This document shows, piece by piece, positions 27,691 through 63,660 of a stretch of 64,000 bases of DNA. The DNA comes from Tubulanus polymorphus. Its lineage: Eukaryota; Animalia; Nemertea. Position 1 is the stretch's first letter. Every line of letters starts with the position of its first letter. The notes under the pieces were generated by a model. That model was not told the origin of the DNA. It searched no databases and was given only the letters and a program-made list of their open reading frames with translations. Made by a program: the position numbers and the translations under genes. The DNA lies in contig NC_134029.1 of the NCBI RefSeq assembly GCF_964204645.1, forward strand, positions 8,582,850-8,646,849. Direction: 5' to 3'.

Positions 27691-27762
27691 TACAGTCAAC
27701 CCCCAATTACCGCCCTCCCTTATACCGCCACCCCCGCTGATCGCCGCCGGGGGTTGACCGTA
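27691..27762. mobile_element. ~70 bp mini-MITE; also the empty paralogous site of the Polinton insertion
   Basis: TA-CAGTCAACCCC ... GGGGTTGACCG-TA. There is a single TACAGT here, versus two copies flanking the Polinton in the second duplicate. Confidence 0.8.
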
Positions 27763-31900: not shown

Positions 31901-34900
31901 TTATTTGTTGAATTCGATGTTTCAACTGCTGTGTTTCCAATTGCATTCTTCCAATTCACTATGTCGATTATTTCTGTTTCACAAATGAAACTCGTGTGAA
32001 CCTCTTCAATTCCGCAAGGGAATCGAACCCAGTTCGCTGATCCTCGGGGATTATTTAGTATCATCGCTGTACATGGCATATTGATGTCTTTTATCGGTTG
32101 TTTTCTTAAAGGAGATATCAATCCTTGAATAACCTCTGGTATCGTATCGTTATTTGTAGGTTTATACCACTCTGTGTAGCTCAATGGTTTCCCATCAGTC
32201 CACGTGTAATAACCAGATCTAGGCTAGAAATATAAAATAATAGCAAATTAACGTTGGGAACATTTAAAAAAAGAAAAACTGTTTACAAATTTACCTGGAG
32301 TTTTAATCCAATCATTACAATGAGCGCTTTCTGCGAATATGCTTGTTTAAGAAGCTTTGTAGCGAATAATGTTTTAATGGAAACCATTTCCTGTTCTGAG
32401 TTGATACTGAGTAGATGTCCCGCATGCTTTTGTCTACAGTACAATTCAGCATTCTCCCAATTCAGACGCTCATCTCTGATATTTTTCACGCAGGAAATTC
32501 CCGAATCTAAAAATCCTTGTTGACAGTGAGCACCATTATTTGAATACTCCATCGCAAACGAATGGCGCAAAACGTATTGTATCTGAAATGTTGCTATTAT
32601 GTCTTTGATTTCGAAATAAAACTGATTACTAATTAAACTATGAAATACAAGTCCTATCGTTGCCATATTCCCACATATTGCAATACGACGATGGGTTCGA
32701 ATGTTCGCCCAGGATATCTCTTGAATGAAAAGTATCGGGCTTGTTTCCACAAAGATGTTTGCGGTGCAGCTTATCGATTCTATAGATTTGATGATAAATC
32801 TGTAATATCGAAATATGTTCCTTTGTCGGGCGTTTGTAAATCTATAGTATAAAGATACCGACGTACGTCCTGCCCATGTCGGGTAGTTCGGCGATTCGAC
32901 CAGTCCGCATTCGTCGTCCAACGAGTAAGCTTGTCTCCCTATTGTTGACCGTAACGTGTCAACAGGCTTTTTCGGTCCTAAACATTTATGACGCAGTTTG
33001 ATAGTGAGTGGTGTCCACCGAAACGCACTCCAACTGCCCATGAATACCGTGCTTAAAACGATGCTTTCATTTAAAAGTTTACTAATCAATCTTAATCTTC
33101 GAGGACAAAGTCGTAACAAATCACGAAAACAACTGTCAATTCGATATTCGTGTCCTGATAATATATGAATTTTTCTGGGAGGAAGGCGTCGGTTTTCGGG
33201 TGTTATCACGAGACAGTGTGACGTCATAACGATCTGACGTTCTACCTGCTTTACATCATACCAGTCACAGTCAGTAGAGCGAAATTCGAGAGTTGGTTTC
33301 TCATCGACTGTTGACGACAGAACATCCCAGTTATAAGCGTATCCTACTACAGTAACATATCCACCGGATGTAATCAGACTGACGACGTTACGGTCGTATA
33401 CCCGTAAACGAGGGCAATACGGACCGTAGCGTCTAGCCGTGAAATTACCACCATCAAATATGTAAAATCCAGCCCGCTCACAGTTCTCTGATAAAACTGT
33501 CAGGTCCATATTCTCATCATGAATATCAACTTTCCATTTGAACAGTAATGTGTTTATTTGGTAGATCAATTCTTTCTTCTTTGATGACGGGAAAATCCAG
33601 CGAAAAGGAAGCCATGATATTCCATCTCGCATCTATGAAAATAATGTCTATGGATCAGTTTATATTATTGGAATATGATTTGATTAGTCAGCTTCATTGG
33701 TAGTTTAGAATTTAATACTCACCCGATGATTAGTGACGTGTACATCTTCTATCGTTAGTGATTTCAATTCAAAGTTAATTTCTATTCGTGACATTGATTG
33801 TTCCCCATTCATTAAGACGCACACTACGGCGAGAAAGCCGTCAGATTTGACACTCAGTGATTCTAGGTTGTTGCAACCGAGTAAAATATCAGCCCTTACA
33901 AAACGCAGCCCTTCTAGTTTATATACACCAATGACGTCACCGGACGTGACGAGATCACGTGTCCAGTTGAAGACGACGTACTGTAACACCTGCACTGCGA
34001 TAGACCAACAGTGTAAGTGGTTTGATCGAGTTATTACGTGTAAACTGTTTTCATCGGGAATGAGCACCCCCGACTCGTTATTAGAGATCTGAATCAACGG
34101 ATTAGAGACGTTCCAATCTGATATTTTGTAGATTTCTGCTAATAGTCTGAAGCGAATTAACGGATTCCAATGAAGCGAAGAGATGACTGCTTTATTTGTT
34201 TTAGTATAGAACGACGAAGGTGGATGTCCGGTTTGTTCTCGTATAATTGCTATAGGTTCACTGTTGGTGTTCCACCCGTCGTAGATTTTAATGGTCACTG
34301 ACTGACTTGCAGGATGTGGTTTTAATATTACCCGAATAAATGTGAGATTCATCGCATGACCGTGTGATATTCCGATCCATTCCACAAACAACTGGCACTT
34401 ACGTATTTTGATGTGGAATTTATACCCAGTTGATGATTGTAGTTTATTTAAACTACAACTTATTTCGTTGCAGTCGTGACTGATTCTGAATCGGCTTCGT
34501 TCATAACGATATATCATATACACCCGACTACCTCGCGCACTATCGACGTAACTCCTAAATATCAACGAGATCGAATCGTTACGGCCGATCTCATGTTTTC
34601 CATCACCGCAGAGTCTGTTATCAGGCTCGTAAACGAGAAGGTAGTCACCATTACAGAATATTGACGGCTCGATGTCGTAGTAAACGTGGACGTGAATAGT
34701 TCCCGGTAAAGAGCTGTTGATGAACCAGCGACATTCAACACCACGCGTTAACGAGGGATAATTCGGTGAAACGATGTAACCGGACGTAGAATCGACGGGG
34801 TACCACGTGTTGTTGCAAGGTGAACTTACCATCACAGACGATTCCTTGATAGAGTCTGTGCGATCGGCGCGTGCTATGCGAACTTGACAGACGATCAGCG

Positions 34901-34934
34901 ACGCTATCAAAAGCGCTCCCAGTTGTTGCTCCAT
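28939..34934 (-). CDS. GRL101-like LGR-family GPCR with CUB, C-type lectin, LDLa and LRR ectodomain, copy 1 (~1,940 aa, 3 exons)
   Basis: Exons 34934-33723, 33632-32295 and 32223-28939 joined by phase-0 GT-AG introns of 90 and 71 nt. Signal peptide, CUB (GYIVSPNYP), CTL (LNWENAELYC...WTDG), multiple LDLa (CDGxxxCxDGSDE), LRRs, hinge STCSDLM, 7TM with TGVCLP and NSSLNPLLY. Confidence 0.9.
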
Positions 34935-37607
34935 AGCAAACAACACGATACAATGAATGAAATTCCTTCACGATTCAAATTCTGCCCCGTTGTCCACGGA
35001 TCTTCAAGTCCAATCAATTAATGATGTAGAATTCTAAATTTCTTACTTACTAAATGAATTATTCACTCTATTTCGCAAGAATATTCAATTTCAGTCGTAA
35101 ATATTGACGCACGGCCAATTATATTTTTAACATGCTTAAATCAATTTTCGTGTCGTTCGCGTTTTTTTTTTGTCTGGATGATAATCTTTTACACAATACT
35201 TTATCATTTTCGCTGGTGTACTGCGCATATATATAGAACACGTCATTCCGTCTAGCACCACCAATTTCATAAAGCCCGCAAATGCGGAATTTGATAGAAA
35301 AGTCCCTAGCCGTGAAGGAAAAGATCAGAGTTGTTGATTAAATCGAGGAATGACCTGAATTGGAATTATTGTGGGATCAACAGGGTTAATTCAGCTATTA
35401 GTAACGTTACCTCTCGGTTTGCTGATCTCCTTTTATGTTACCAGTTGCCGACATCATAGTTCCCGCTTAAGTTTGACTCTGGCAATTATTGAGTCGAGAA
35501 ATCCGTTCATTTTCGATATGTCCGTGTAACACCTTGTGAAATCTTTACCAAGAACGTTTAAACCATATCCTAGTTTGTTTTTATTGTAAAGTCCACTTTC
35601 GGTTATTTTCAACTTCTGGAGGAACTAATAAACCTCGTGTATAGTTTTGTGTATATTAAGTGTTTCGTCTTTCATCTGGGGTTGACGCGTTTTTTACCAC
35701 TATTTGATTCATGAAAAATGAATGAACTGTAACATTTAACCAATGAAATTCCTCGGATCCACTCGGAATTTTGAGTTTCATGCTTAACATGAACAAATCG
35801 GGAAAACTCAGGGAATTTGTCAATTTTGTAGAAAGTGGCCACCCTGATTAAAAGAAATTCAAAATTAGGAAGAAAATACGGCTCGACTCATCCGTGAATG
35901 AAAGTTGAAACTACAATGGCGTTTGTACGATTGTTCTCGAGGGAATACCTGGTGGCGACACCGTTAATCGGGACGAAAATTCCTTAGATAGCAAATACTT
36001 GGGGAATGTCCAGAAAATAACTCCTGAGTCTCGTAAACCTTAGATAGTTACAGAGTATGGCGTGACACAAATTCGCATATCACTTTTTACAAAACGCCCC
36101 CCTTCCCCCACCCCTGGTGGCACCACCAAAAAGTTGATAAAAAACTGTTAGAATACAGAGAAAATATGACTCAAATAAAAATTGACGCCGGACGGACGGC
36201 TCACCCCATACCCTACCTCACCTTTGGTCACAGCGGAGCTAGAAAAAAGCGATAGACGATGGAATACTTGGAAAATCTGTACCGACCTCAAATAAAGTTC
36301 TATATAGTGTGCCCATGTCACACTTGCAATTAAAAGAAAAAGACACATTCAAGGTTTTCGCTCCTTTGTTGCGAGCAAGCTGCGGAACCGGTGGCTGATA
36401 AGGATCATAGCGAAAATTTCTGGTATGCAAATCAGGGCTCCAGAACGCAAGAACGCCAAAACGAAAAAAACGTCAAATTTTCTCTGAAAGTTCGTTTTTG
36501 TGCGCCAAAACAAAGAATAATTCCGTTTACGCGCTCCCGCTAAAACGAACTTTCAACCACGTAAAATAATTCTATATATGAAAATTCATGCAAATTATAC
36601 ACAGGATCAACGCGCCAAATTGAAAAATAATTTTACTGTGGTTGAATCCTTTTTTGGCGGGGCGCCAAAATGGATTTAACCGCGCCAAAACGAAATCCTC
36701 TTTGTTTTGGCGCGCCTATTATACTGACCACCCCTCCCCCATCCGTACTACGGTACATTTTGAAAGACCCTTCGGCCTACGAATTGGCCATTAAAATTGT
36801 TGAGCTACCTTTAATTGAAAAACGCTCCGAGATATGCTCATTTCAGTCTACCGCTGGTTTACCGACCACATCGGTGCAGAACGATTTTGGCGGTATAAAT
36901 CGACGAGTATGGCGGTATATCGGGGCTTGTCAAATGATTACTCCAAGATCGGGGTGGTTTACTATGTATTTGTATTAGAGATGAACATTGAGAAAACCTG
37001 GCGGTAGGCGGGGGTGGTGGCAAATGGGAGGGCGGTTTATCGGGGTAGACTGTATATAAAATCAAGTAAGTAGCATATTTAGAGGGGGTGATATTACTAT
37101 AATATGATATTTTGCATCAGAATATCGCGAAATTTTTTATATCTGGTCCACAAAGTATGAACATTTTCTGAAGAGACTTGCTATCAGAAAAGTACGTACA
37201 TTCTTCTTAGAGACATGCTGGCAATGATATCAAGATCAATGGTGTGTTGAGTTATACGGTCACTGTTGCTGTTTGAAGTGCGAGTATTTGCAGACATAGT
37301 TTTTCTCGATGCTCGTTCGCGTCTCGACGTCAAAATCAATCGAATGGCTACAAGAATCACTGTCGGGATTATACTTTATAGGACTAACAAACTCTACTAT
37401 TTCAACTGTTCTTTTTTTTTACCTAATAAAAGTCCAAGTCCGTGTCCATCATTCGTGTCCAGTGCACTGATTAATGGAACAACGAGTAAAATATTTGTAT
37501 TGAATAATCGACATTGTCAGTAAACATTTATGTAGATATAACTTTTCTTCGTACGAATAATTCTAACAGCTTACAGATGCCAAAAAACAACATTAAAGCT
37601 GTACAGT

Positions 37608-38020
37608 AGTAATAGGAAAAGTAGGCTTTCATACCAGAGGACGAGAGGACGAGACACCACTCATCACCACAAGTAATTTTTTTTCCTAATAAATGGGGGA
37701 GAATGAACACCAGCCAGAAAACAATAATGTTAATAAAAATCAATATTATTGCACATGTTGTAAAAAATACGTTGATACATCTAATAAAACACGACATGAA
37801 AAAACTGCAAATCATATAAAAAATGTAATAGATTTTGAAACTCCAGAAAATTCCAATGAAAGAAAAGAAAGATTAGAAAATATGAATGTGGATGAAATAA
37901 AATGTGAAGTTTGTAATGAATTTATAGTAAAAAGGAATTATAATAGACATCTCGAATCACAAAAACACCATCAAAATTTGAGTAATAATGTTTTAGGAAA
38001 AGATTATTTTGATGATAAAC
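37608..38020 (+). repeat. Left terminal inverted repeat (413 bp)
   Basis: Reverse complement of 54367-54779. Similarity ends after GATGATAAAC. Confidence 0.93.
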
Positions 38021-41000
38021 CTCAAAAAGTAAAAAAACCAAATTCAAAAACTTAATCCATTTCAAATAAACCTTACATGGAAAATGTTAGAAATTATATT
38101 GATTCACTAGAAATAAAAGATACAATTGAAATTTTAGAAACATTACATAGTAAAATTGGTCCTGCAGCTATTATATTTAGATTTTTTAAAGGTACAACAA
38201 TAGAAGATTATAGTAAATTAAATGAAATAATAGAAAAAATACTAGATTTGATAACAGATGTTGAATATCCAAAAATTAGTATCTCTGGGAAAGTAAGTTT
38301 TATAAAGTCAGAAGAAAAAATGAATTATAATATTCAAACACTCTCTGAAGAAATAATTTCAAAAACACAAATAAAGAGAAGTTAGAAAAAATATTTAATG
38401 AATTTAAACGTCATATTGAAGAAAGATATTTTGAGGGTTCTGGCTTAACATTGAATGAAATTATATATTTAGATTTAAATGTTTATAATACAAAAAGAAA
38501 TAAAACATCAAAAAGTAATAAAATGTTCAAAATGAAGATAATAAATGTTTTCTATGGTCAATTATTAGTTGTTTACACCCAACAGAAGATATGACGCATA
38601 GTTTTAGAATAACAAATTACCGGAAATATGAAACATTATATAAAATTGATCAATATCCAGTAACTATAAAAATGATTCCTAAAATAGAAAAAGTTAATAA
38701 TTTAAAAATAAATGTATTCGAATTAATGCAATTACCAAAGACAAAAGGTGAAAATATTAAAGATTATACATTGGAAGCTTTATATTTAACAGAATATTAT
38801 GATGATGAAAATGCTATAGATTTGTTATATTACAAAAAAGATGAAAATGAACATTATATGTGGTTAAAACAAATTGATTTATTCTTTAGAACAGAAAGTG
38901 ATCACCATAATAAAATTTATCTATGTAGAAAATGTTTATCTAAATTTATGACTGAGAATACATTATTAAAACATAAAGAATTATGTGATAATAAAGATTT
39001 TTGCAAATTAATAATGCCAACAGAAAAAGATTATAAATTGAAATTTACTAATCATAAATTTAAAAATATTGTTCCATTTGTAATTTATGGGGATTTTGAA
39101 TCGTTGAATAAAGAATTAACTGATCAAGATAGAAAAGAAATATATAACAAAAAGCAATTATTAAAATCAATGGATAAAGGAAATGAATTAAATGAAGACA
39201 CAACACAAGATCCGCCAATTATAAATACAATTAAAAAAGTTCATCAAAGAGCTGCTGCTTATAGAATTTATATAAAATCAAATTATCCCGGTTTATATGA
39301 AAGTCAATATATTTCTTTTAGAGGTGAAGATGTAGTTAATGATTTTTGTAACAAAATGATTGAATTAGAAAGTGATTTTGCAAAATTATCAAACAAAAAT
39401 AAAAGAATATTTATGACAAAAGAAAATGAAATTGATTTTAATTATGCAACTCATTGTTGTTATTGTGAAAAACCTTTTTATTCATTTGATAAAAAAGTTA
39501 GAGATCATGATCATTTAAATTCAAAATATCGTGGAGCTGCTCATGAAGATTGCAATTTACAAGCTAAGAAAGTTAATTTCGTACCAATATTATTTCATAA
39601 TTTATCAGGCTATGATACCCATCTATTTATAAAACAATTATCAAAGAAATTTGGCACAATTAATCAAGAAATAGAAGAATATAATGCTATGAATGGTGTA
39701 AATGTAAGAAAATATGATTTTAAACTATTAGCTAAAACATCTGAAAATTATATTTCATTTCAATTTGGTTGCATTAGATTTTTAGATTCTTATAGATTTC
39801 TAGCAAGTTCATTAGATAATTTATCAAAAAGTTTAGTTGATAATGATTTTGTTATAACTCGATATTATTATCCAAATGACCAAGATTTTAAATTATTGAG
39901 ATATAAAGGTGCAATTCCTTATTCATTTTATAAAACACACAATGATTTTAATGTAACAGAATTATTAAAAGATCAATTTTATGATCAATTAAAAGAGGAG
40001 TATGTGAAAGACGAAGTGTTTAATAGAACATTAAATATTTGGAACCATTTAAGGATGAAAAATCATGGTGAATTAGTTGATTTATATTTAAAATCAGATG
40101 TTATGATATTGGCTGACATATTTGAAAAATTTAGAGAAGTCAATTTGAATCATTTTAATGTTGATCCTTGTTATTGCTACTCTAGTCCTGGTTTAACCTG
40201 GCAATGTGGTTTAAAATATACAAATGTAGAATTAGATTTATTAAAAGAACCAGATATGGTTTTATTATTTGAAAAATCAATTAGAGGTGGAATTAGTGGT
40301 GTTATGGGAGATAGGTATTTTAAAGCAAATGATGAATATAAATTATTATATATTGACGCCAATAATTTATATGGTTGGGCAATGATGCAGCCTCAACCAT
40401 ACAAAAATTTTATATTAACAGAAGTTGAAAATGATGATAAAACTAATTGGGAAAGCGCAACTATGAGTTTAGAAGATGAAGCACCAATTGGTTATTTCTT
40501 TGTAGTTGATTTAGAATATCCTGAAAATATAAAGTTTAAAACAAGAAACTTACCTTATTGCCCAGAACATTTAACTGAAGATGATAGTAATTTAAGTGAA
40601 TACCAGAAGAAAATAAAACCGAAAGATCATGTTTTTACAGAAAAATTAATACTTACTCAAAATAATAAATACAATTATATTGTTCATTATAGAATGTTAA
40701 AATTTTATCTAAAACAAGGAATGAAATTAAAGAAAGTACATAGATATATTGAATTTAATCAATCGAAGTGGTTAGAAAAATATATAGATTTTAATACTCA
40801 ACAGAGAACCATATCAAAAACAGATTTTGAAAAAGATTTCTTCAAATTAATGAATAATAGTTTTTATGGAAAAACATGTGAAAATATTAGAAATAGAAAT
40901 GATATTGAATTAGTAAATAATTCTGAACGATTAAGACATTTACAATCAAGTCCTAAACATTTAGGAAATAAAAGATTTGAAGATTATTTAGCAGCAGTTA

Positions 41001-42670
41001 AATTAAAAAGAACGTCAATGAAATTTAATAAACCTATATTTATTGGTTCAACAGTTTTAGAAGTATCAAAACTATTAATGTATGATTTTTATTATAATGT
41101 TTTACAACCACTTTTTGGGGAAAAGCATATTGAAATATTATATTTTGATTCTGTAACAGCTGACACCCCAATATTATTAAAATGTAATAATAAAATATTG
41201 GTAAGAAGAATTTCAGAAATAATTCCAAAACAAAATTAATGTTATATTTCATATGGTGAAAAAGAATTAATACAAATAAATGGATTAATGGATGTTTGGA
41301 CAAGAAATGGATGGAAAAAATTAAAGAATATTATTAGGCATAAAACAAATAAGAAAATCTATAGAGTTAGAACTAAATTAGGGTTTGTAGATGTTACAGA
41401 AGATCATAGTTTAATTAAACGAAATGGCGATGAAATAAAACCAACTGATATAAAAATTGGAGATGAATTATTACATAAAAGATTTTTCCAAAGAATGAAT
41501 CATATGTCATTTGATGAAATAATTGATAATATTTATAACATAGAACCCGAAACATTAGAAAGAAAAGAATATTTTATCAAAGGATTTTTCATGGGTGATG
41601 GTTCAGCAGGTGTGTATAATTATGTTAATCGCACTCAATATTGCTGGTATTTATGCAATCAAGACTTAAAATTATTAGAAAGAATAAAGAAATTCTGTGA
41701 AGAAGTTTATCCAAATAAAACATTTAAAATCATGGATGTTATGAAATCAACAGCAGTTTATAGAATACTTGTAAATAATCCTAAAGATTTTGCTATAAAA
41801 TATAATGATGAATTCTATATTCATGCAATAGTTAAAAGTAATACTTCAACAAAAGATAAGATAGTACCAGATTATTTATTAAATGCAAAAAATAATTTAA
41901 GAAAATGGTTCTTCATTGGATTCTATGCTGCAGATGGTTCAAAAAGTTTCAAAAACCGCAAAACAATATCTTTAGCTCAAAAAGGAAAAGTTGCTATATC
42001 AGGATTGAATATATTATGCAGTTCATTAGGATTTAATATGAATATTGGATTGATTAAATCTAAACCAAATTGCTTTAATTTAAGACATGTAGAAAATGAG
42101 TTAACAGAAGAAGTTAAAGATTTATTTGAAATATATAACCCAACTGACTATGTTTATGATTTATCAACAGATGATGGAACATTCAATTCTGGGTTCCCAT
42201 TAATCCAAAAAAATACCGACGCCTACATACTAAAAATCAAGACAAATGACATAACAAAAGACTTAAAAACATTAAAACATCATTTTGATTTTAGCACTTA
42301 TCCCAAAGATCATGAACTATTTAGCAATGATAATAAACAGATTCCTGGTAAATTTAAAGATGAATTAGGGGGTGATGAAATGATTGAATTTGTTGGGATA
42401 AGAAGTAAAATGTATAGTTACAGAACAAAAGATCATGAAGCTAAAAAGTTAAAAGGAATAACAAAACATGTGGTTGATAAACATATAGAATTTCAAGATT
42501 ATATAAAGTGTTTATATAAATCAATTGTAATGAAACACAAAATGAATTGTTTAAGATCAGAAGATCACGAGATGTACATTAATGAAGTTAAAAAAACTAG
42601 TTTGAATCCATTTGATGATAAAAGGCATATTTTAGATGATGGTATAAAAACATTACCTTATGGCCATTAA
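37693..42670 (+). pseudogene. polB: Protein-primed family B DNA polymerase (zinc fingers, vOTU-like protease, EndoVII/HNH insert, exonuclease, polymerase) containing an intein; disrupted
   Basis: EGSG, NEDNKCFLWS...EHY, IYGDFES, CCYC...RDHDH...HEDCN, FHNLSGYD, YIDANNLYGWAM, KLMNNSFYGK, YFD|TD, GKFKDE, SKMY, DDKR. In-frame stops at 38053 and 41237, frameshifts at about 38380-38520. Confidence 0.93.
41150..42214 (+). mobile_element. Intein with dual-motif LAGLIDADG homing endonuclease in PolB (355 codons, one in-frame TAA)
   Basis: Block A SVTADTPIL directly after YFD, block B VDVTEDHSL (TxxH), LAGLIDADG-like YFIKGFFMGDG and WFFIGFYAADG, block F YVYDLST, block G ending QKN followed by Thr. Removing it restores YFDTD. 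Confidence 0.93.
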
Positions 42671-43994
42671 AACATAAAATCAATATCATCATACTCGAAA
42701 TCACTATTGGCTTCTTCATTTTCATTTAATTGTTCTTGTATAATTTGTTTAGGTTCTTCCATTTCATTTTTCTCATTTAAATATAGTGCTATCTTGTACC
42801 ACATTTCATCTCGCTCTCTTTGTTTCTTTTTGTTCGTTAATTCATCAAATGGAATTATAATATCGATGTTTAAATAATTTACAATCTTATTTAAAAAGAA
42901 TTCATAATTTATTGAATCTGTTATTCTATTTTCCAAATGATACATTAATATTTGTTTAAATATTTTTTTTATATTTTCCATATCTTCTTCTGTTAATTTA
43001 GGTTTTTCATAATAATCGTTAAATAATAAATATAAACACATTTTCTTTTGTTTTGTGTTAAATGTTGACGGAATAATTGTTTTTATGATATCTTTTTTAG
43101 TTATTTCACCATTTTTATTTTCTATTATTTTCATTTTTTCATGCCATTGCATATATTCTGGTGTATGATCTTCTATAGAAAATATTTTAAAAATTTCATC
43201 TAGATAATTTAATTTTGGATCTATGAAAAAATTTCTAGTTTTTTCTTCACTCCATAAATTCTTTTGCCATCCACAATCAACACAAAATAACACAGTACCT
43301 TCTTGTCTTAAGGTCGCGTAATTACATTGTGGACATTATCGTTTATAATTTATTGGTAATAGATCTTCATTAAGCTCTTGGTATTTTCTTACGTTTTCTT
43401 TATGTTTTATTGTTCTATTATGTAGATTTGAATTACTTGTTGTAATAATCAATTTACAATATTTACAATAATATGTTTTTCTTGTTAATTGATTATATTG
43501 TTTTTCTAACTTTTCAACTGTTTCTTCATTATCTGGCAACGTTTTCTCATATTTTATTTTTTCTAATATATTATTTTTTCTTTCATTGAATTCAGTTTCA
43601 AATTTATTAGAAATTTTATCTATATGTGCTTTACGAAATTGATGATTCTCCCAATCTTCTATATTTTCAGGGTTATATCTTATTCGACAAGGCTCACAGA
43701 AATGATCTTTTATATTATCCTTATCATAGAATAAGAAAGGTCTTTTCCAAATAATTTCAGGTTCAACTTCAACAGAATTACTATTACTTTCATTACTATC
43801 AACATTAGCCGTTGCGCCATTAATTTTACACTTCTCTGAATGTTTTTAACATAATTTCTTGAGAATAATTTATTACATTTTGGGCAGTTTAGTTTAGGGG
43901 GTTTATAATTTTCTTCATGTTTTTTCATATGTCGAGCCATATTACTTTTTCTTAGAAGTTCACCACAAATTTCACATGCTATCTTCTCATCCAT
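42667..43994 (-). pseudogene. Zinc-finger + zinc-ribbon + poxvirus late transcription factor VLTF3(A2)-like protein; disrupted
   Basis: C2H2-like fingers (CEIC...HMKKH, CKYC...H). CPQC...CVDCG ribbon in frame across a single TAA at 43336-43338. The C-terminus INYEFFLNKIVNYL...RDEMWYKIALYL resembles the VLTF3 consensus (judged by eye). Confidence 0.65.
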
Positions 43995-44055
43995 TATTTA
44001 TTAGGGAAAAAAATTACTTGTGGTGATGAGTGGTAATTTTTTTATGTTATAAATA

Positions 44056-44820
44056 ATGGTAGAATTAAAAGAATACAGAATATTTGTTGATTCTAGAAAA
44101 CTTACAAATTATAAATCACATAATTTACTAGTTCAATTAGATAGAGAATTTAAGAATTGTGTTGATTTAAAATTAGTTAATATAAGTTTATGTAACTCAT
44201 TTTACAATATATCGGATAAAAGTTTTGATCATAGAGTCTTTTTAGTTTTTGAAAAAAGTAAAAATGAATTGTTTCCTCTATATTTAAACCCAGGTTTATA
44301 TAATTTAGAAACATTAGCCCAAGAAATTAATCGGAAAGCACGATTATATCTTGAAGGTGAAAGTGAATATAAATTTTCAATTAGATTTATAAAAAAGGAT
44401 AGTTCTGATAGAATTATAATAAAATTAAATGATGAAAGTAAACACGCATTTATGGTAGAGAAACCTTTAGCTAAACTGTTAGGAATTAAACCAAAAATTG
44501 TTACAGGAAACGTAAACGGTAATTCAAATATAATACCTTTTACACATTTTTATATTTATTGCAATTTAATTGATCCTACAAAAACATTTGAGGCAACTAA
44601 AGATACAATTTGTAATTCTAGTATATTAAATATTTTACCATTAAAGAATGTTAAACAATTTGGAACGCAAATAAATTATAATTTAGCTGAATGTGATTTT
44701 AAACCTTGTATTCCACATTTCAATAATTTCAAATTAGAAATAAGAAATCATAATGGATATTTAATTGATTTGAATAACTTTCCTGTGATATATGAATTAG
44801 TTATAAGATGTAAAGAGTAA
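44056..44820 (+). CDS. Putative minor capsid protein (penton, single jelly-roll)
   Basis: 254 aa, beta-rich. Pattern IFVDS...SFYNI...PGLYN...YIYCNLI...IRNHNGYLIDLNNFP is typical of Polinton/virophage pentons. Confidence 0.7.
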   Translation: MVELKEYRIFVDSRKLTNYKSHNLLVQLDREFKNCVDLKLVNISLCNSFYNISDKSFDHRVFLVFEKSKNELFPLYLNPGLYNLETLAQEINRKARLYLEGESEYKFSIRFIKKDSSDRIIIKLNDESKHAFMVEKPLAKLLGIKPKIVTGNVNGNSNIIPFTHFYIYCNLIDPTKTFEATKDTICNSSILNILPLKNVKQFGTQINYNLAECDFKPCIPHFNNFKLEIRNHNGYLIDLNNFPVIYELVIRCKE

Positions 44821-44836
44821 TTTTTTCATTATATAA

Positions 44837-45190
44837 ATGAATATAACTGTTGGACCGAGTATATGTTTTGGATTTGATTTTAAACGTGAGAAAGAAATGA
44901 AATTTAACATTAATGATGTAATTACACATATTAAAAATATTGCATTTTCTAATGAAACAACATTTAAGTATGAAAAAACAATAGATAAAGAAACTTTTAA
45001 TGTAGAAAAGATTACTAATTTAATTAGAGAATCTTTAAGATTTTATGAATTAGATGAAGATTTTATCATCGATGATATTAAAAGAATAATAATTGAAATA
45101 TATACAAATGAAACTAGTAATGAAATAAATGTTGATTTAATCATAAATAAGTTAACTAAATATTTTGAAGATAGTAATTTTTTTGATTAA
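44837..45190 (+). CDS. Polinton hypothetical protein
   Basis: Intact 117-aa ORF starting at TAAATG. Confidence 0.6.
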   Translation: MNITVGPSICFGFDFKREKEMKFNINDVITHIKNIAFSNETTFKYEKTIDKETFNVEKITNLIRESLRFYELDEDFIIDDIKRIIIEIYTNETSNEINVDLIINKLTKYFEDSNFFD

Positions 45191-45193
45191 TAA

Positions 45194-45415
45194 ATGAGTG
45201 ATAATAAGTGGATAATAACTGGATTATATAATGGCACCTTACTATCAGTTGGAACTGTTGGTTATTCAATGGTATTTAAAAAAGTATTTAAAATGGGAAG
45301 TGTTAATGTTGATAGATTTGATATAAATGATATCTTAAAATTAACATTTGCAGTTACTTTATCTAATTTAACTATTGATTATTTAGAAAAACAAAAATAT
45401 ATTCCTCCCATATAA
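45194..45415 (+). CDS. Small hydrophobic Polinton protein
   Basis: 73 aa, TAAATG start, ends DYLEKQKYIPPI. Confidence 0.65.
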   Translation: MSDNKWIITGLYNGTLLSVGTVGYSMVFKKVFKMGSVNVDRFDINDILKLTFAVTLSNLTIDYLEKQKYIPPI

Positions 45416-45439
45416 ATACATAATTTTTTTGTTAAATAA

Positions 45440-45862
45440 ATGGCTTCTGCAATTATAACTATTATAGGATCGGCAATTGTTAACGCTTTAGCATTTACTG
45501 GTGGTGGATATTTATTTAAGCATATTGATAAAAATGGATCATTAACAGAACAAAAAAGACATAACTTAGCATTATAGAAATACAATAAAGCAGCAGAAGA
45601 ATATAGAGAAAAAAGACAAAACTATATGGATTATATTAACAAGGAATTATATGATCAGAAGATTTCACATAGAGATTTTCAATCAGTTGATGATGCAATG
45701 AGTTTATATAACGCGGTAACAAATAAAGAAAAATTACATCTATACAAACCTAAATTATCAGATTGTTATACCCCAAGTAAAGAACAACAGAAATATGAAA
45801 TAATATGGATTTTAGGTGGAACTGTTATTGTTATATTTGTAGCATATAAATTTACTAATTAG
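45440..45862 (+). pseudogene. Polinton membrane-associated protein (NALAFTGG...KRHNLA), one nonsense codon
   Basis: ATG 45440 is in frame with ORF 45626-45862 across TAG at 45575-45577. Hydrophobic N- and C-termini. Confidence 0.7.
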
Positions 45863-45881
45863 TAATTTTTTTTCTAAATAA

Positions 45882-46316
45882 ATGGAAGATAAAGTTGATA
45901 GTATTGATATTATTCCTCATGATATAAATAAAACTAAATTATAAATATATTTAGAAAAACAAATATTAGAATTTGAAAGTGACTTAAAGATAAAAAAGAA
46001 AAAATATTTAAAAAGTAAAATTATATATTATTTGATTATAAGTGGTTCGGTTACAATTAGTTCTGTAATAACATTTCTAGCAATATTCAGTCCATTTACA
46101 CCTTTAGCTATATCAATTGGTGTATCAGGATTAAGTTCAAGTGTTTTAACTGGTATAAGTTCAAAATTAAATATAAAAAGTAATAAAGAAAAAATTAAAA
46201 CTAATATAAAAGAAATTAATAAATTAAAGAATACACTAGATTATATAATAAGTTTAAAAGGTCATATAACAGTTGAAGAACAAGATAAATTATTAAAAGA
46301 ATTAGTTAATTATTAA
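45882..46316 (+). pseudogene. Two-TM-segment/coiled-coil protein, one nonsense codon
   Basis: TAAATG start at 45882 is in frame with ORF 46032-46316. Confidence 0.6.
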
Positions 46317-46332
46317 TTTTTTTATTATATAA

Positions 46333-47641
46333 ATGGGGTTTCCAAAAGCTTTCCGATATAATAAATCACATGAATATTATAAATATAATACTCCAGCAAT
46401 AGATTTTAGTAACATGATAATATATAAAAATTTAGTTTTACCTTCATTGATTAATTTAGAAATTTATGTTACTGAAACAAACTATTTTATTTCTAAAATG
46501 GAAAATATATTTAATACATATGAAGTTACTTTTACTCGAGATGAATATAATATATATAAAGTAAAATCTAATATGAAATATTGGCAGAATCAATTAAATG
46601 TTGCTGTTCATTGTGCAACAGCTGGTTGTGGTGTAAGTTGGCATGATCACTTGAATAACTTAGATAAGAATTTGAAATATTCTGATTTAAAATTCATTCA
46701 TACAATATTTAGATTTCATGTATACTTTCAAATTAGAATTATATTAAATGAATTTGAATGCCCTTTACCTGGATCAAAATATTTTAAAGAATTGGATAAT
46801 AATATTAATCTATCTAAGTTTTATAAAATATGTAATGAATTTTATAAATATTAATTTCGATTTTAAAGCGCATGGTAAATTGCAAGGTGTTGGTGAAGAG
46901 TTTGAAATAAAAAGAATTGATTATATGCATAGAATTAGAGCTTATCATAATTATAAAATTGATAATAATAATGGTTGGGTTTATTTTATTGAATCTTATA
47001 GTGAAGGATTCACAAAACCTGGAATACAAAGAATAAATCAATCAATTAGAACTTATTTGATATGTATTTTAGGTGCGCAAGTTGAAACAAGATCACCAAT
47101 AGTTGGAAATAATAGTACTTCATTTGATGCGCAAAAACAATTCAAAGTTTTATTTGAAGATTCCATTCATAATGATAAAAATAGATCGATTCCAGAAAAC
47201 ATTGTAAGATATCAAAATTATTTAGATAAATCTCACGTAAGACTAAATTATTGTATAGGCCCTAATCTATTAATTATTTCTAATGATTTAGTATTAAAGA
47301 TGGGAAAAATAATTGGTTATAATAATCTAATTAAAACTGCAACAATAAATAATTCAATTGGATTAGATGATATAAATAAAAAGATTATTACTGCTCCAAA
47401 ATTAATGGAAGGTGAAAAAAATAAAAAACATATTCAATCAACAGAAACTAAAACTAAGAATATTAAATTGGATAATGATTCCAAAATAAAAGATTACAAT
47501 ACTACAGAAAATATTAAAACTGATAATATTCAACATGATATAATAAAAACTGATAATGATAATAAATTACATGAAAATACTAAATTAGCTTTAACTTGTA
47601 TAGGAATTGTTATAGGAGGAATATTATATTTTGAATTTTAA
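46333..47641 (+). pseudogene. Polinton protein (WQNQLNVAVHCATAGCG) with C-terminal TM, frameshifted near 46850
   Basis: Two overlapping ORFs (173 and 297 aa) with a single TAAATG start. Confidence 0.65.
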
Positions 47642-47657
47642 TTTTTTTATTATATAA

Positions 47658-49108
47658 ATGGATGTAGAAGGTGGAGAAGATATTGGAATGGATCCTTTTG
47701 ATGAACCTGGCATAACTGATGAACAACAACCTGATTTTAGTGAAACAAGTTTTAATGACGGTAATGAGCCAGGATATAATAATAATTTAAATATGCCTGA
47801 TTATATTAAAAATGCAGAATCACAATTAAATCCTGAAAATTGAAACCCAGATTTAGTAAAACAAGATTTAGATAATTTAAACAAAATACCTAAATTAGAA
47901 GATTTAATTGAAAAATCTAAACTTAACATAAATGATGAAGACGTTGGACTTTTAGCAGATCAATTAAAATTTCTAGATAATGGTAAATGTTATTATCGTT
48001 TGAAAGATGATTATTATATTGATATCACTTATAAAAAAAAATAATAACAAAATTAACTTTGAGAAAATTAGATCCAGATAGAATTAAAAGAATTAGTAAT
48101 AGTAATGTAATAACTGATGTTATAAAACAAGAATTAACTGATAATGATATAGACGTATTCAAACAAAGAATTAATGAATTATTTGAAATAATCAAAAAGA
48201 AATCAGAAACAGAAACAACTTCTGAACAGAATATAACTTCCAAAACTAGTAAACTTAAATCAAATAAAGTTCCAATTGAAAAACTTTTACCGAATGGATT
48301 ACTTGATGCAACAGATCAAGAATTAGAAGATTTAGATATATTTTCTGATAAAGCAATTAGAGAAATTATTAGTATAAGACTTGCATCTGATAAAATTGCG
48401 CATGATAAAAGTATAAGAGATTTTAAGATTAGAACTTTAGAAAAAGAATTAACTGATAAAAATAAAGAAATAGAAAAAATAAAGTCTGATTTAGATCATC
48501 AAGTAATTGATGAAATAGAATATAGGCAAAAAGAATTACGTTTAGAAAAAGAAAAAGATGATTTAGAATATAACATAGAATTACAAAAAGAAGAAATTAG
48601 ATTATTATTAAAATCATATGATTATAATATTAATAGATTAAAAGATGTTTTTAAAAGATATCTAATAAAACCAGATTCTAAAATATCATTGAAAGATAGA
48701 ATAAAATTATTATTTAAGTTTGAAGGAATAACAATTCTTTCAATTCTAACAGCTGTAACTATGTTATTTACAACAATTGGTTTAGCAATATCAAATGCTT
48801 TAAAATCTACTCCTACTCCCAATAAACCAGATAAACCTCCAGATAATAATTCTATACAAGATAAAGTTAAAGATGGTTTAAAGAAATTAGCAAAATATTT
48901 ATTGGAACTATCTAAAAAATCTGCTGCAGCATTACCAGGAATTATTGCATCAATTGTTGGTTTTATATTGAAATCTGCTGGGAATATTCTTAACTTTGCT
49001 GCTGAACATATTATTTTATTTTTAATTACAGTTGTAAGTGCTATTATTTTTGGGTTAGTGAATATGATATCAAAAAGATATCAAGAAAAAATAATAAAAA
49101 ATAAATAA
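47658..49108 (+). pseudogene. Acidic N-terminus/coiled-coil/hydrophobic C-terminus protein, disrupted
   Basis: Single TAAATG start at 47658, TGA at 47841, frameshift near the A-run at about 48035, then a 349-aa coiled-coil + TM portion. Confidence 0.6.
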
Positions 49109-49128
49109 TTAATTTTTTTGTTAAATAA

Positions 49129-50376
49129 ATGAGTGGGAGTTATATAAGTCCTTCTAAGATTTCTAGAATATCTAATGCTATTAAAGCAGAAAGATCACAT
49201 CATATAATTACTCATAATCCTTCAAATATTAATCCCGATGAAACTTTATATGTTAGAATTCCTCGATTAACACAAAATACTTTTTATGTTCCAAATAGTA
49301 TTTATTTATCAGCTGATATAAAAGTAATTGGTCATGATAATAATTATGTTGTTGATAATGTTGGGAGATATTTGATTAAAAAATTAACTATAAAGATTGG
49401 TCCAGAAACAGTTTTCTCATTAGATGATTATAATTTATTTATGCATTATAAAGATTTATGGTTAACTAAAGAAAATAGAAATAATATAATATTTCAGGGT
49501 ATTCAATCGGAAAACCATAATAAATTAAGATCTGAAGCCAATAATGCAGTAGTAACTAATGCTGTAGATAATCTGATTAAAAAGATTTATGGAAGCAAAT
49601 ATAAAATTCCATTAGACTTTGAATTGATAAATAATAATGCACCTTTATATAAATATGTAATTCAAGAAGGTATTATATTTGAGATAACATTTGCTCCTGT
49701 AAATGAAATTGTATTATCTAGCGTTGTTAAAGATATGGGTTATAAATTATCAAATATATGTTTAGAATATGACACAGTAACTAATGAAAATATTGCTAGC
49801 ACAATTCAAACTCAATACAATCAAGGATTTTCATTATTATATGATTATATTGATAAATTTAAAACTGTAACTATCAATGCAAATGATGAAATAATTAATG
49901 AGAATATTAACTTCCCAAGAAGATCTATTAAAGGTATATTAATATTTTTTACCATTGCAACATATTCTAATGGCGCAATAAAGGTTGATAATTATTATAA
50001 TCCTGAAATAACAAAAGTAGAAATAACTATCGAAGGAATAGCAAATAAAATATTTTGTCAAGGAATGAGAATGATTGATCAATGGCCAGAAATTAGAAAA
50101 CATTTTATGAATGAAAAAGTAAAATCATTTGAAAATTGTAATATTAATCAAATTGATTATTATACCGGCAATAAATACGCACTATGGTTAGATTTTAGAA
50201 CAACAGAGGATAATTCATTACATGGTTCTGGGAAAAAACTACAGAACACAAAAAATGGAATACAATTATTCATGAAAAAGAAAAAAGGAAGCTTAAATTT
50301 TAAAATGCACATATATATTATATCTGACGCACAATTAAATATTGTAAATTTACAATTAGGTAGTATTCAATATTAG
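49129..50376 (+). CDS. Putative major capsid protein (double jelly-roll)
   Basis: Intact 415 aa, beta-strand rich (NPSNINPDETLYVRIP, LSNICLEYD, NINFPRRSIKGILIFF, ALWLDFRT). Lies next to the integrase and ATPase genes. Confidence 0.75.
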   Translation: MSGSYISPSKISRISNAIKAERSHHIITHNPSNINPDETLYVRIPRLTQNTFYVPNSIYLSADIKVIGHDNNYVVDNVGRYLIKKLTIKIGPETVFSLDDYNLFMHYKDLWLTKENRNNIIFQGIQSENHNKLRSEANNAVVTNAVDNLIKKIYGSKYKIPLDFELINNNAPLYKYVIQEGIIFEITFAPVNEIVLSSVVKDMGYKLSNICLEYDTVTNENIASTIQTQYNQGFSLLYDYIDKFKTVTINANDEIINENINFPRRSIKGILIFFTIATYSNGAIKVDNYYNPEITKVEITIEGIANKIFCQGMRMIDQWPEIRKHFMNEKVKSFENCNINQIDYYTGNKYALWLDFRTTEDNSLHGSGKKLQNTKNGIQLFMKKKKGSLNFKMHIYIISDAQLNIVNLQLGSIQY

Positions 50377-50406
50377 AAATATAAAGTTAAAATTAACGAT
50401 ATATAA

Positions 50407-51534
50407 ATGGGCGGTAAAAAAACTCCTAATACTAAAGAACAATATCTAATAAATTTATATTACAACCCTGAGAGTTCGGTTGCTTATTCTTCTACCAAAA
50501 ATATATGGCGTCAAGTAAAACAAGATAAATTAGATAAGATAATCCCACAAAATTTAGTTAAATATAAAGATATAAATGAATTTATGTTAGAACAACCAAC
50601 ATACGCAACACATAAAAAAATTGTTAGAAAATATAAAACTCGTAAAACTATGGTAAGTTATGTAGATCAACAGTGGCAAGGAGATTTAATTGATATGAAA
50701 AATGTTAAGAAAGATAATGATGATTATTGGTGGTTATTGAATATAATTGAAATTTTTAGTCGTTATGTATGGAGCTTCCCACTTTATAGAAAAGATGCTG
50801 TACAAACATCAAATGTTTTAAGAAAATTTCTTTCGGATGATAAACTAAAACCAGAAAAAATACAATTTGATGATGGAAAAGAGTTTGATAATTCACTTGT
50901 TCATGAACTCTTAGATAATCATAATATTGAATATTTTTCAACAAAATCGGATAAAAAAGCAGCAGTTGTTGAACGATTTAATAGAACATTAAGAACAAGA
51001 ATGTGGAAATATTTTACAGCAAATAATACTTTTAAATCGATTGATGTTTTACCAAAATTGATAGAAGGATATAATAATTCTTATCATTCTTCTATTGGAA
51101 TGAAACCTATTGATGCTAGAAAACCTGAAAATGCTGAAATTGTTTGGAATAATTTATATGGAGCATTTCTTGTAGATGATTTTGGTGAACCTAAATTTAA
51201 AGTTGGTCAAAATGTTAGAATTTCTAAGTATAAAAAGATATTTGATAAAGGATACGATCGAAATTTTACTAGAGAAATATATAAAATAAAAAAGGTAATA
51301 ACAACAAAACCATATGTCTATAAATTAGAAGATTTAGATGGTGAAGAAGTTGATGGCTACTTTTATGAAGAAGAATTAAGTTTAACTACTGAAAATCTAG
51401 AACAAGAATATAAAATTGAAAAAGTATTAAAGACAAAAACTATTAAAAGAAAAAAATATTCTTTAGTAAAATGGGTTGGATGGCCAGATAAATTCAATGA
51501 ATGGATATTATCAAGTAAAATTAAAAATATATAA
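50407..51534 (+). CDS. Retroviral-like (rve) integrase with C-terminal chromodomain
   Basis: DDE triad WQGDLID / QFDDGKEF / VVERFNRT. Chromodomain EYKIEKVL...LVKWVGWPDKFNEWI. Consistent with the 6-bp TSD. Confidence 0.95.
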   Translation: MGGKKTPNTKEQYLINLYYNPESSVAYSSTKNIWRQVKQDKLDKIIPQNLVKYKDINEFMLEQPTYATHKKIVRKYKTRKTMVSYVDQQWQGDLIDMKNVKKDNDDYWWLLNIIEIFSRYVWSFPLYRKDAVQTSNVLRKFLSDDKLKPEKIQFDDGKEFDNSLVHELLDNHNIEYFSTKSDKKAAVVERFNRTLRTRMWKYFTANNTFKSIDVLPKLIEGYNNSYHSSIGMKPIDARKPENAEIVWNNLYGAFLVDDFGEPKFKVGQNVRISKYKKIFDKGYDRNFTREIYKIKKVITTKPYVYKLEDLDGEEVDGYFYEEELSLTTENLEQEYKIEKVLKTKTIKRKKYSLVKWVGWPDKFNEWILSSKIKNI

Positions 51535-52143
51535 ATGAATAAGGAATTATTTATATTTGAGCCTCATAATATGTTAATTTCTGGTGTAACAAATTGTGGA
51601 AAAACTTATTTTATATTAAATTTATTAGAAACTGTTTATGAAAACTATTTTGATAATATAGTATTATTTTGTCCAACATATGAATTTAATCAACCTTATG
51701 ATAGAAATATTACTAGAAATAATAAATTTATTATATTAGATCCTAAAACAGTAAAAGAAAATTTAGATAATTGTATTAAAATAGCAATAGATATTTATAA
51801 AGGATCAAATACATTATTCATTATAGATGATTGTGCTTATCTACATGATTCAAAAGTTAGAGAGAGTGAGTTATGCTATTTAGCTTTTTCTGGCAGACAT
51901 TTTGGGATAACAACTTGGGTTTTAAATCAAAAATATAATTCAATTGTTAAAGACTTTAGAGAAAACATTAGATTTCTAGTTTTATTCTACAATAAAGATA
52001 GAAAATCGATGAAAAATGCACTTGAGGAAAATGATATTATTCCACATGATTTACATAATGAATATATGGATAAGTTGAAAAATATTAAAAGATCAAAATT
52101 ACTATTTAGATTACAACACCCATTTAAATATGAATTTATTTAA
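51535..52143 (+). CDS. A32/FtsK-like genome packaging ATPase
   Basis: Walker A GVTNCGKT, Walker B LFIIDD, SGRH motif, LNQ. Confidence 0.9.
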   Translation: MNKELFIFEPHNMLISGVTNCGKTYFILNLLETVYENYFDNIVLFCPTYEFNQPYDRNITRNNKFIILDPKTVKENLDNCIKIAIDIYKGSNTLFIIDDCAYLHDSKVRESELCYLAFSGRHFGITTWVLNQKYNSIVKDFRENIRFLVLFYNKDRKSMKNALEENDIIPHDLHNEYMDKLKNIKRSKLLFRLQHPFKYEFI

Positions 52144-52145
52144 AT

Positions 52146-52420
52146 TCAACTAGCTTGTTAATCTAGTTGAATTCTAGTTACATTCTAGTTGAATTCTAGT
52201 TATTGGTAGTTGTAACAAAAATCAACTAGATTTAACAATATTTTAACTAGCTTGTTAATCTAGTTTAATTCTAGTTACATTCTAGTTGAATTCTAGTTAT
52301 TAGTAGTTTGAACAAAAATCAACTAGATTTAACAAGAAATAAATAAAAACAACAATATTTCAACTAGCTTGGTAATCTAGTTGAATTCTAGTTGCATTCT
52401 AGTTGAATTCTAGTTGCAAC
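52146..52420. repeat. Three ~100 bp repeats built from AACTAG/CTAGTT/GAATTC modules
   Basis: AACTAGCTTGxTAATCTAGTT...ATTCTAGTTGAATTCTAGTT recurs at about 52148, 52245 and 52362. Confidence 0.85.
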
Positions 52421-52447
52421 ATCACAACTAATTTTTTTGTTATATAA

Positions 52448-52960
52448 ATGGTAGGTGAAAAGAAAATAAAATCTAAAAATGGTGATGTTCAAATTGAAAA
52501 AACTTTAGATGATTTAGGAATAACAGAAACAAAATTAACTCCAGATGATGGTGCTTTAAATAATGTTACAACAAATAATAATTATGAATATTATCTTTAT
52601 TGTAAACATCAATTAGAAATATTAATAGCATCTGAAAATGCAAAAATTTTGTCGGTAAAAATTTAACTTATAATGAATTAGATACAATGAAATCAGATGA
52701 AATTATTAGATTATCTAAGATTTATGAAGCCGCGAGAACAGCTAGAATTAATGACGCGATATCAGGAAATGTAGTAAAAGGTTATAGTAAATCATGTAAT
52801 TATATACTACTAATTGAAGATGAAAATAGATTATATTTTATTTAAAAAATGATTATTTAGTTATGACTGAATTAAATAAATGGATTGGATATTTATAATT
52901 TCAATTAGGTGGATTTATGACATTATTATCAACTGGGGTTATAACATTTTCAAATATTGA
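52448..52960 (+). pseudogene. Polinton hypothetical protein, frameshifted
   Basis: TAAATG start. Coding-like sequence continues in other frames after 52666. Confidence 0.45.
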
Positions 52961-52983
52961 AATTAAAAATATTTCTATAATAA

Positions 52984-53352
52984 ATGAGCGAGGTGGAAGA
53001 AGTGAAGGAATTAACTATGAAGAAAAAACCGAGATCACAGAAACAAATTGAATGGTCTCGGCAATTAGGGATTAAATCACAAGAATATAAAAAAGCTGTA
53101 AAAGAAAAAATAAGTAATAAAAATGTTAATAAAAATAGTGAAAATATTGTTATTTCTACTCCTTCTAATGATAGAATATTTGATAAATGTCTATATTTTA
53201 CAGTTGGATTTGTAATTGTATTCATTTTGATTGGGTGTAATTGGTATAAGAAATCAAATAAAATTCACGATATTAATAATTCTGAAACAACTGCTATTAA
53301 AAATGAAAATACTTCTGAAATTCCAAAATTGATAATGAAAAAAATGGATTAA
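52984..53352 (+). CDS. Polinton protein with basic N-terminus and one TM segment
   Basis: 122 aa, TAAATG start, YFTVGFVIVFILIG. Confidence 0.65.
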   Translation: MSEVEEVKELTMKKKPRSQKQIEWSRQLGIKSQEYKKAVKEKISNKNVNKNSENIVISTPSNDRIFDKCLYFTVGFVIVFILIGCNWYKKSNKIHDINNSETTAIKNENTSEIPKLIMKKMD

Positions 53353-53514
53353 TATTTTAGAAAAAAAGCAAAAAAAAATAATTTTTTTTAATTAATTGAA
53401 TATTAATTGAATATCTCACTACTTTTGTCTATCTATGAGGCGCAATTAAATTGTCCAGATAAGTCATTTCGGATTCTAGATATTCATTATTTTTATTAAT
53501 TTATTTTTTTAAAT

Positions 53515-53841
53515 TTAATCAACAATTTCTAAATCATGATGGCCATCTTCATTTTTTCCATGATAGATTATTTTAAATCCTTCTAAATCTTTTAATTCCT
53601 CTGTACTCAATGAAGCCCATTTATCAGGTAAAAATACTTTAAATTCTCGCGATGTACTAACATTACAGTAGCTTAAATTCGCTGATACTTTCTCTCCATA
53701 TTTAGTTTTTATCTTTTCTAATTTCAATATTTTATGTTCAATTTCTTTTGTAACATCAACTAACTTTTTTATTTCAAATTGTTCTTTTGCTGGTTTTATT
53801 CTGTTATTTATTGTTGCTAAGAATGCTTTTCTATCTCCCAT
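53515..53841 (-). CDS. Small protein, possibly OB-fold ssDNA-binding
   Basis: 108 aa with a TKYG...VFLP pattern, preceded by the 22-bp motif and TAAATG. The function is inferred. Confidence 0.55.
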   Translation of the reverse strand: MGDRKAFLATINNRIKPAKEQFEIKKLVDVTKEIEHKILKLEKIKTKYGEKVSANLSYCNVSTSREFKVFLPDKWASLSTEELKDLEGFKIIYHGKNEDGHHDLEIVD

Positions 53842-54211
53842 TTATAAGGAAAACAAATTACTTGTGGTGATGAGTGGGATTACTTCCCCCTATATAACAA
53901 GCACGCTATTAACCGTTCTCACCCAAGCCTCACAGCATCTATTTATACGGGCACAGTTGACCCGCAATCACTGTACTACAGTAATAGCATGCGCGTTAAT
54001 AACCGTTCTCAGTAGCGACTCACTGTATCGATCTATCCACGCGCAGCTGTTGTTACGCGCACTCACTGTATATGTGTATCACAGAGCAATCGTCCGTTCT
54101 CACAAGAGCCTAGCTATGATGAGTGGTGTCTCATACCCGGTTAATATTTTATTTTGAGTTATGATATTTTGAATTAAGATGGTGTGATTTATTGCTTCGA
54201 GTATAATATTT

Positions 54212-54694: not shown

Positions 54695-54779
54695 TTATTA
54701 GGAAAAAAAATTACTTGTGGTGATGAGTGGTGTCTCGTCCTCTCGTCCTCTGGTATGAAAGCCTACTTTTCCTATTACT
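54367..54779 (-). repeat. Right terminal inverted repeat (413 bp)
   Basis: Reverse complement of 37608-38020, followed by TSD TACAGT. Confidence 0.93.
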
Positions 54780-62100: not shown

Positions 62101-62131
62101 CTATCAAAAGCGCTCCCAGTTGTTGCTCCAT
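56133..62131 (-). CDS. GRL101-like CUB/CTL/LDLa/LRR GPCR, copy 2
   Basis: Same three-exon structure as copy 1 with all ORFs open (413, 450 and 1081 aa tracks). Scattered substitutions and one extra codon. Confidence 0.9.
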
Positions 62132-63608: not shown

Positions 63609-63660
63609 CAATTCTACATTATAATTATTGAATTGAGTTAAATGATTTAAATATCTAATA

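Follow-up and report, generated by a model that had tools for sequence, protein, structure and literature searches.

A decayed Polinton in a duplicated host segment

The window analysed here is a stretch of 64,000 nucleotides from the nemertean Tubulanus polymorphus, and all positions are given within it. It holds a complete but decayed element of 17,172 bp (37,608-54,779) with a GC content of 24%, against 39% in its flanks. Terminal repeats, a 6-bp target duplication, PolB, integrase and ATPase are all present and the element is a Polinton/Maverick, with the following features:

37,608-38,020, plus strand: left terminal inverted repeat, 413 nt, 96% identical to the right one, with AG...CT ends
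37,693-42,670, plus strand: protein-primed PolB gene (PF03175, E 1.5e-19) with several breaks and N-terminal U1-like fingers
About 41,192-42,211, plus strand: LAGLIDADG intein inside the PolB catalytic motif, broken by a stop
49,129-50,376, plus strand: likely major capsid protein (weak Capsid_N match, E 0.014), T-run/TAAATG start
50,407-51,534, plus strand: retroviral-type integrase with a chromodomain (PF00665, rve, E 3.3e-9), TAAATG start
51,535-52,143, plus strand: A32-like packaging ATPase (PF04665, E 8.3e-13), TAAATG start
54,367-54,779, minus strand: right terminal inverted repeat, followed by the 6-bp target duplication

The left terminal repeat contains the start and the finger-bearing N-terminus of the PolB gene. 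With Pfam, no maturation protease family was recognised in the element's ORFs, and none of 31 ORF pieces matched a family of RNA polymerases or capping enzymes, apart from one weak Rpb1 match (E 0.035) outside the element.

In X6, a DNA sequencing run with the same species label, the body of the element is covered at a depth of about 210-370 (121 in one intein bin), while the host bins with the lowest coverage are at 17-28; 469 reads exit the left end into mixed flanks. Given this depth and the mixed flanks, the Polinton family probably has ten or more copies. The intein is present in X6 at a depth near that of its flanks; it is absent from the PolB of a related Polinton (locus L001), which is 78-81% identical. 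Nuclease insertions are known in Polinton PolB, as the accessible parts of two papers describe (PMC11161782, PMC10748475).

Several other repeats accompany the element. A 94-nt repeat in three copies follows the ATPase gene (52,145-52,452), and in the right terminal repeat an inward 160-aa ORF (54,212-54,694, minus strand) duplicates the PolB N-terminus, fingers included, and continues into a tail of its own. A short terminal sub-motif that includes a 7-nt direct repeat is kept between L001 (6,306-6,353) and the window (54,733-54,780), making this conserved stretch a candidate replication origin or binding site. Beyond the element, an AT-rich region at 62,955-64,000 with a 24-nt tandem array resembles the terminal ORF of the element, forming an inverted repeat with 54,260-54,381, and is likely the end of a second, related element.

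The surrounding host DNA is a tandem 27-kb duplication with genes at 28,939-34,967 and 56,133-62,164 (minus strand). The Polinton sits in one duplicate segment, and the paralogous segment keeps the empty insertion site at 27,691-27,696. The duplicated host genes are long frames with CUB, C-lectin, LDLa, LRR and 7TM domains, presumably GRL101-like receptors; the two receptor gene copies flank the element, and X6 depth suggests a large family for this gene.

One gene in three pieces

On the minus strand of the Polinton, a gene at 43,994-42,667, whose stop codon overlaps that of PolB, is divided into three pieces:

43,995-44,033, minus strand: upstream signal, composed of a 22-nt motif, a T-run, a 6-nt spacer and TAAAT
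43,843-43,994, minus strand: piece 1, with the start ATG at 43,994 and two tandem CxxC zinc fingers (C2H2 and C2HC-like)
Near 43,842-43,854, minus strand: frameshift that terminates piece 1
43,339-43,845, minus strand: piece 2, with a low-complexity linker, a third finger, a helical stretch and a fourth (U1-like) finger
43,336-43,338, minus strand: in-frame stop that breaks the gene directly before the ribbon
42,667-43,335, minus strand: piece 3, 222 aa, VLTF3 (poxvirus A2)-like, with a ribbon, a cyclin-like helical domain and an acidic tail

Pfam matches the fingers of piece 1 (zf-C2H2, E 1.6e-5) and of piece 2 (zf-U1, E 2.6e-7). In piece 3, a CxxC-x13-CxxC zinc ribbon occupies residues 1-21 and the helical domain residues 34-190 approximately. 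The copy in the window is unable to produce the full protein.

A phmmer search of 1.84 billion proteins returned four matches for piece 3. One of them, P0001, is a single unbroken 697-aa protein encoded by a related Polinton, and all three pieces match it in order: piece 1 at residues 10-55 (52%, E 2e-14), piece 2 at 186-324 (39%, E 4e-31) and piece 3 at 331-546 (46%, E 3.9e-41). A single frame of P0002 (446 aa) carries the four fingers, the ribbon and the helical domain in the same order, while the likeness of P0003 (281 aa) is mainly to the C-terminal part; P0005 and P0006 are near-copies of P0001, leaving three independent relatives. Altogether, open relatives of 446-707 aa with 38-46% identity hold all parts in order. 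At L001, the P0001 gene and the gene for an unbroken protein-primed PolB of 1,336 aa converge tail-to-tail, the same arrangement as in the window. Since the pieces match the unbroken P0001 in order and P0002 shares the layout, the fusion of fingers and VLTF3-like part is real, and the original prediction, which joined the three ORF fragments into one gene with C2H2-like fingers, a CxxC-CxxC ribbon and a helical domain, was correct. That fingers and VLTF3 are two adjacent genes is ruled out by the unbroken relatives. Other searches added nothing to these relatives: a read-through query in a word-index protein search gave 660 candidates, with none at E<=0.001 and none among proteins of 911-2,600 aa, and IMG/VR, scanned for sequences related to piece 3 or to the capsid gene, returned no locus.

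Conservation of the gene is highest at second codon positions (0.72 versus L001 and 0.63 versus L002, with 0.62 and 0.51 at third positions). At the in-frame stop, 166 of 167 X6 reads differ from the window, and at the frameshift site 156 of 200 show a length difference. The 17 near-fixed private differences, taken from the best-supported 40 of 208, split 6/6/5 over codon positions, as in neutral decay. Each of the two breaks thus seems specific to the window copy, which is decaying by itself within a multi-copy family. The homopolymer frameshift may also be an assembly error, and X6 need not come from the same individual.

The C-terminal piece is a VLTF3 homologue

The C-terminal pattern had been predicted to resemble VLTF3 (A2) of poxviruses and NCLDVs, and profile tests that avoid circularity, phmmer and fold searches all back this likeness. 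A profile built from six entomopox-type VLTF3 only gave piece 3 a score of 37.4 bits, where the best of 2,000 shuffles reached 12.7 and the reversed sequence -2.9. In the reverse test, a profile of four Polinton-type rows scored five full-length pox-type VLTF3 at 25-44 bits, with shuffles below 0. The same profile gave, on the pox side, 13 bits for L004 and, on the other, at best 22 among 18 giant-virus-type rows, a lean toward the pox type to which common AT-rich composition may contribute. Aligned profile to profile with hhalign, the four Polinton-type and six pox-type rows matched over 131 columns (95.3%, E 2.3e-8). The fourth phmmer match of piece 3, P0004 (E 6e-4), is a Pfam-confirmed VLTF3 with an A2L ribbon. 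Matches to pox proteins from one earlier profile search, whose profile contained a pox row, were excluded as evidence.

Residue by residue, Cys 1, 4, 18 and 21 of piece 3 align to the A2L ribbon of the pox rows, and the ribbon cysteines are retained together with C-terminal core residues. Over about 180 residues, the ribbon and helical domain align to pox VLTF3 (vaccinia A2; PF04947 Pox_VLTF3 with PF08792 A2L zinc ribbon), with an identity of 23-29% and the same predicted fold; the entomopoxvirus proteins are the closest here. The Pox_VLTF3 profile of Pfam itself missed the family, with no match for piece 3 up to E 10 and none for P0001-P0003 up to E 1, and a PDB sequence search gave nine matches at E 0.02-1.4, none of them relevant.

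Structure comparison points the same way. A model of piece 3 folded from nine rows (pLDDT 72.7) has three short strands in the ribbon, and its best fold matches in BFVD are VLTF3 models, at E about 1e-6 and TM 0.49-0.58; since five of the nine rows are pox sequences, these matches are partly circular. Among the eight BFVD matches at E<=0.001, five (TM 0.44-0.58) are named VLTF3 or late factor, two are unnamed and one has another name. The alignment-free model (pLDDT 58.7) placed pox VLTF3 at ranks 1-2, at an E of only 0.1. In the Atlas, 27 of 30 look-alikes of piece 3 fall in Pox_VLTF3 clusters (top matches 0.95-0.96), a weak score as the recognition value of 2005 is below the line of 2300 for strong evidence; for the whole P0002 the best match is 0.77, to small finger proteins, which is a lead at most. 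Taken together, the identification of piece 3 as a VLTF3 (poxvirus A2) homologue is well supported, and a role of VLTF3 in late transcription by a viral RNA polymerase is putative for the Polinton protein.

A ribbon and one predicted cyclin-type fold

VLTF3 had further been described as a TFIIB-like factor, and this stands in part. Foldseek on the PDB with the piece 3 model returned nothing at E<=0.001. When Foldseek candidates were realigned, the first cyclin repeat of TFIIB came out on top (Z 6.1, rmsd 3.2, 90 aligned residues, about 10% identity), and an unbiased search of 48,161 chains put cyclin-fold proteins (Rb, cyclins, TFIIB, Brf; judged by entry title and a reading of the chains) in all of its top 21 rows, with Z 4.4-5.2, rmsd 2.9-6.3 and 85-133 aligned residues. 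All these Z values are below the caution line of the tool, and the argument is one of class consistency. The whole helical domain (34-190) aligns to one cyclin repeat of about 90 residues, and two tandem repeats were not found. Likeness was seen to VLTF3 and, below that caution line, to the cyclin folds of TFIIB. A ribbon with one cyclin-type fold would agree with a TFIIB-like protein; in the unbiased search, though, TFIIB scores no higher than cyclins and Rb.

Piece 3 is thus predicted, from its model, to consist of a ribbon and one cyclin-type fold, TFIIB-like in layout and not a TFIIB. By this prediction it shares with TFIIB, TFB and Brf an N-terminal zinc ribbon followed by a cyclin fold (the family layout in the accessible text of PMC11579359), whereas the Polinton factor has one cyclin-type repeat with an insertion and TFIIB has two.

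The zinc fingers resemble those of the element's own PolB

The first finger of the fusion is similar to the N-terminal fingers of the element's PolB (41% over 29 aa, E 1e-6), and Pfam finds U1-like fingers in both genes. At the DNA level, the 5' end of the L001 fusion gene matches the PolB gene of the window element (74% over 86 nt, E 4e-7). An exact 22-nt motif also precedes four starts in the window, at non-capsid genes:

37,657: before PolB
44,033: before the fusion gene, between divergent genes
53,877: before a 108-aa ORF
54,730: before the partial PolB copy of the right repeat

Given the likeness of the fingers and the common motif, we infer that the promoter and fingers of the fusion gene arose by copying inside the element, the fingers probably from the PolB gene. 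In L001 the motif does not precede PolB. It is possibly a second promoter class. Pox VLTF3 proteins of 226-228 aa have no N-terminal fingers, and a C2H2-like pattern occurs in one of 119 giant-virus-type frames, only 77 of which have much upstream sequence.

Start signals spaced like poxvirus late promoters

The TAAATG starts noticed in the original prediction are real and far above chance: TAA precedes 13 of the 26 first ATGs of ORFs of at least 60 aa and 35 of 656 other ATGs (p 1e-9). A fuller signal, composed of a T-run, 5-7 nt and TAAAT, occurs 13 times, 12 of them at ORF starts, the fusion gene included, whose signal stands back to back with that of a plus-strand gene at 44,056. TAAATG starts are also found at the L001 and L002 genes. 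In vaccinia, late promoters have a T-containing core 5-7 bp before TAAAT(G/A) and three late factors are used, according to the accessible text of PMC5294985; no vaccinia late factor other than VLTF3 was recognised in the element.

The VLTF3-like factor, acting in trans, and the TAAAT start signal, in cis, likely belong together as one module. It was therefore an overstatement to count the factor, next to the start signals and the intein, as a third independent link to large cytoplasmic DNA viruses, the more so because the intein is missing from L001.

Origin of the Polinton VLTF3

In a VLTF3 tree the Polinton rows form a separate long-stemmed branch outside the seven pox rows, one of three long-stemmed groups. 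The tree is unrooted, with long branches and 29 rows, and lacks chordopox, asfar, irido and other groups; selection by length and a 70% identity cut-off reduced 77 of 119 giant-virus-type sequences to the 18 rows in it, which share one exact motif. Because the Polinton branch is separate and long-stemmed, it suggests no recent capture and names no helper or donor. A recent capture from entomopoxviruses is accordingly unsupported, the Polinton rows lying outside the pox clade of this unrooted tree.

Discussion

Judging from its sequence, the unbroken protein is quite probably an initiation factor for the TAAAT promoters of the element. The best explanation, to which we give a probability of about 0.5, is that the fingered VLTF3 would steer the multi-subunit RNA polymerase of a helper toward Polinton promoters. 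That such a factor could redirect a helper's RNA polymerase, as the original prediction suggested, is plausible: the ribbon would contact the polymerase, promoter DNA would be bound by the cyclin fold, and the added fingers would hold the factor on the Polinton itself and so could give Polinton promoters an advantage over those of the helper. A helper virus is modestly favoured by promoter form and by precedent, and host RNA polymerase II is a strong rival. Among the precedents, mavirus promoters resemble the late promoter of CroV, and the helper's late factor was proposed to serve mavirus (10.1101/068312, accessible part); PLVs travel in entomopoxvirus occlusion bodies (PMC11296320, accessible part). 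These are also small integrating DNA viruses with gene starts like a large-virus late promoter. Where they differ is that mavirus is proposed to use the late factor of its helper, while the window element encodes its own; the accessible text on the entomopoxvirus PLVs has no mention of VLTF or transcription (PMC11296320). By extension, a lineage of animal Polintons could be satellites of a pox-like virus with their own retargeted late factor, VLTF3 with PolB-derived fingers that would steer the helper's RNA polymerase, a reading that we hold tentatively.

It is possible, though we are doubtful, that the protein is instead an autonomous nuclear factor whose fingers bind Polinton promoters and whose TFIIB-like part recruits host RNA polymerase II without any helper. 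The integrase and the many genomic insertions imply a nuclear stage, cellular TFIIB is the best single PDB match, and the added fingers could stand in for missing partner factors. Moreover, the accessible text on CpV-BQ1 describes VLTF3 in a virus that lacks its own RNA polymerase (PMC12085832); VLTF3 is thus also kept by viruses that encode no such enzyme, and its presence need not mean a viral polymerase. On the other hand, the ATG is overlapped by a start signal that is spaced as in poxvirus late promoters, there is one cyclin repeat where TFIIB has two, and the GC content of the element is well below that of the host. An unlikely alternative is a decoy or repressor that competes with the helper's VLTF3 and lowers helper late transcription, with the helper's own factors reading the Polinton genes. 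The long branch and the lost Pfam match do suggest altered function and a helper-supplied late factor is enough in the mavirus model (10.1101/068312, accessible part), but the ribbon cysteines and C-terminal core residues are kept with respect to pox VLTF3. Finally, that the gene is a roleless captured VLTF3 piece or a chance assembly of three unrelated pieces is very improbable and already largely refuted: the window copy is broken twice and its private differences are spread evenly over codon positions, yet all parts stand in order in open relatives, conservation peaks at second codon positions and, at both breaks, most X6 reads disagree with the window.

The presence of VLTF3 in polintoviruses has been published before. 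Homologues were reported in stony-coral polintoviruses and read as giant-virus gene exchange (Stephens et al. 2024, PMC11131425, citing Krupovic and Koonin 2016), and others are present in non-animal MELD viruses (PMC8502044), in both cases as described in accessible text. KilA is another precedent for NCLDV-to-polinton transfer (10.1101/2024.03.23.586382, accessible part). The coral case is alike in that the VLTF3 gene lies in a Polinton-type element of an animal genome; compared by description only, it differs in that the accessible text has no mention of zinc fingers, promoters or inteins, and a VLTF3 entry is absent from the one supplementary text file of that paper (PMC11131425). Compared with pox VLTF3, the Polinton protein has four N-terminal zinc fingers, escapes Pfam and forms a separate tree branch, and its gene lies in a 17-kb integrating element without RNA polymerase. 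In the accessible literature (without subscription papers, Repbase and figures), we found neither a finger-VLTF3 fusion nor any account of pox-type late promoters for animal Polintons.

The finding also bears on VLTF3 as a marker of Nucleocytoviricota, outside of which it was termed undetected in the accessible text of a 2024 paper (PMC11253617). Since the homologue described here escapes Pfam, Polintons may hold more such genes than have been counted. Virions of animal Polintons have not been seen, according to the accessible part of 10.64898/2026.06.19.733378. With a late factor and a matching start signal in one element, the question of how these Polintons express their capsid genes becomes testable and, if true, the satellite reading would point to the missing trigger of particle production by animal Polintons.
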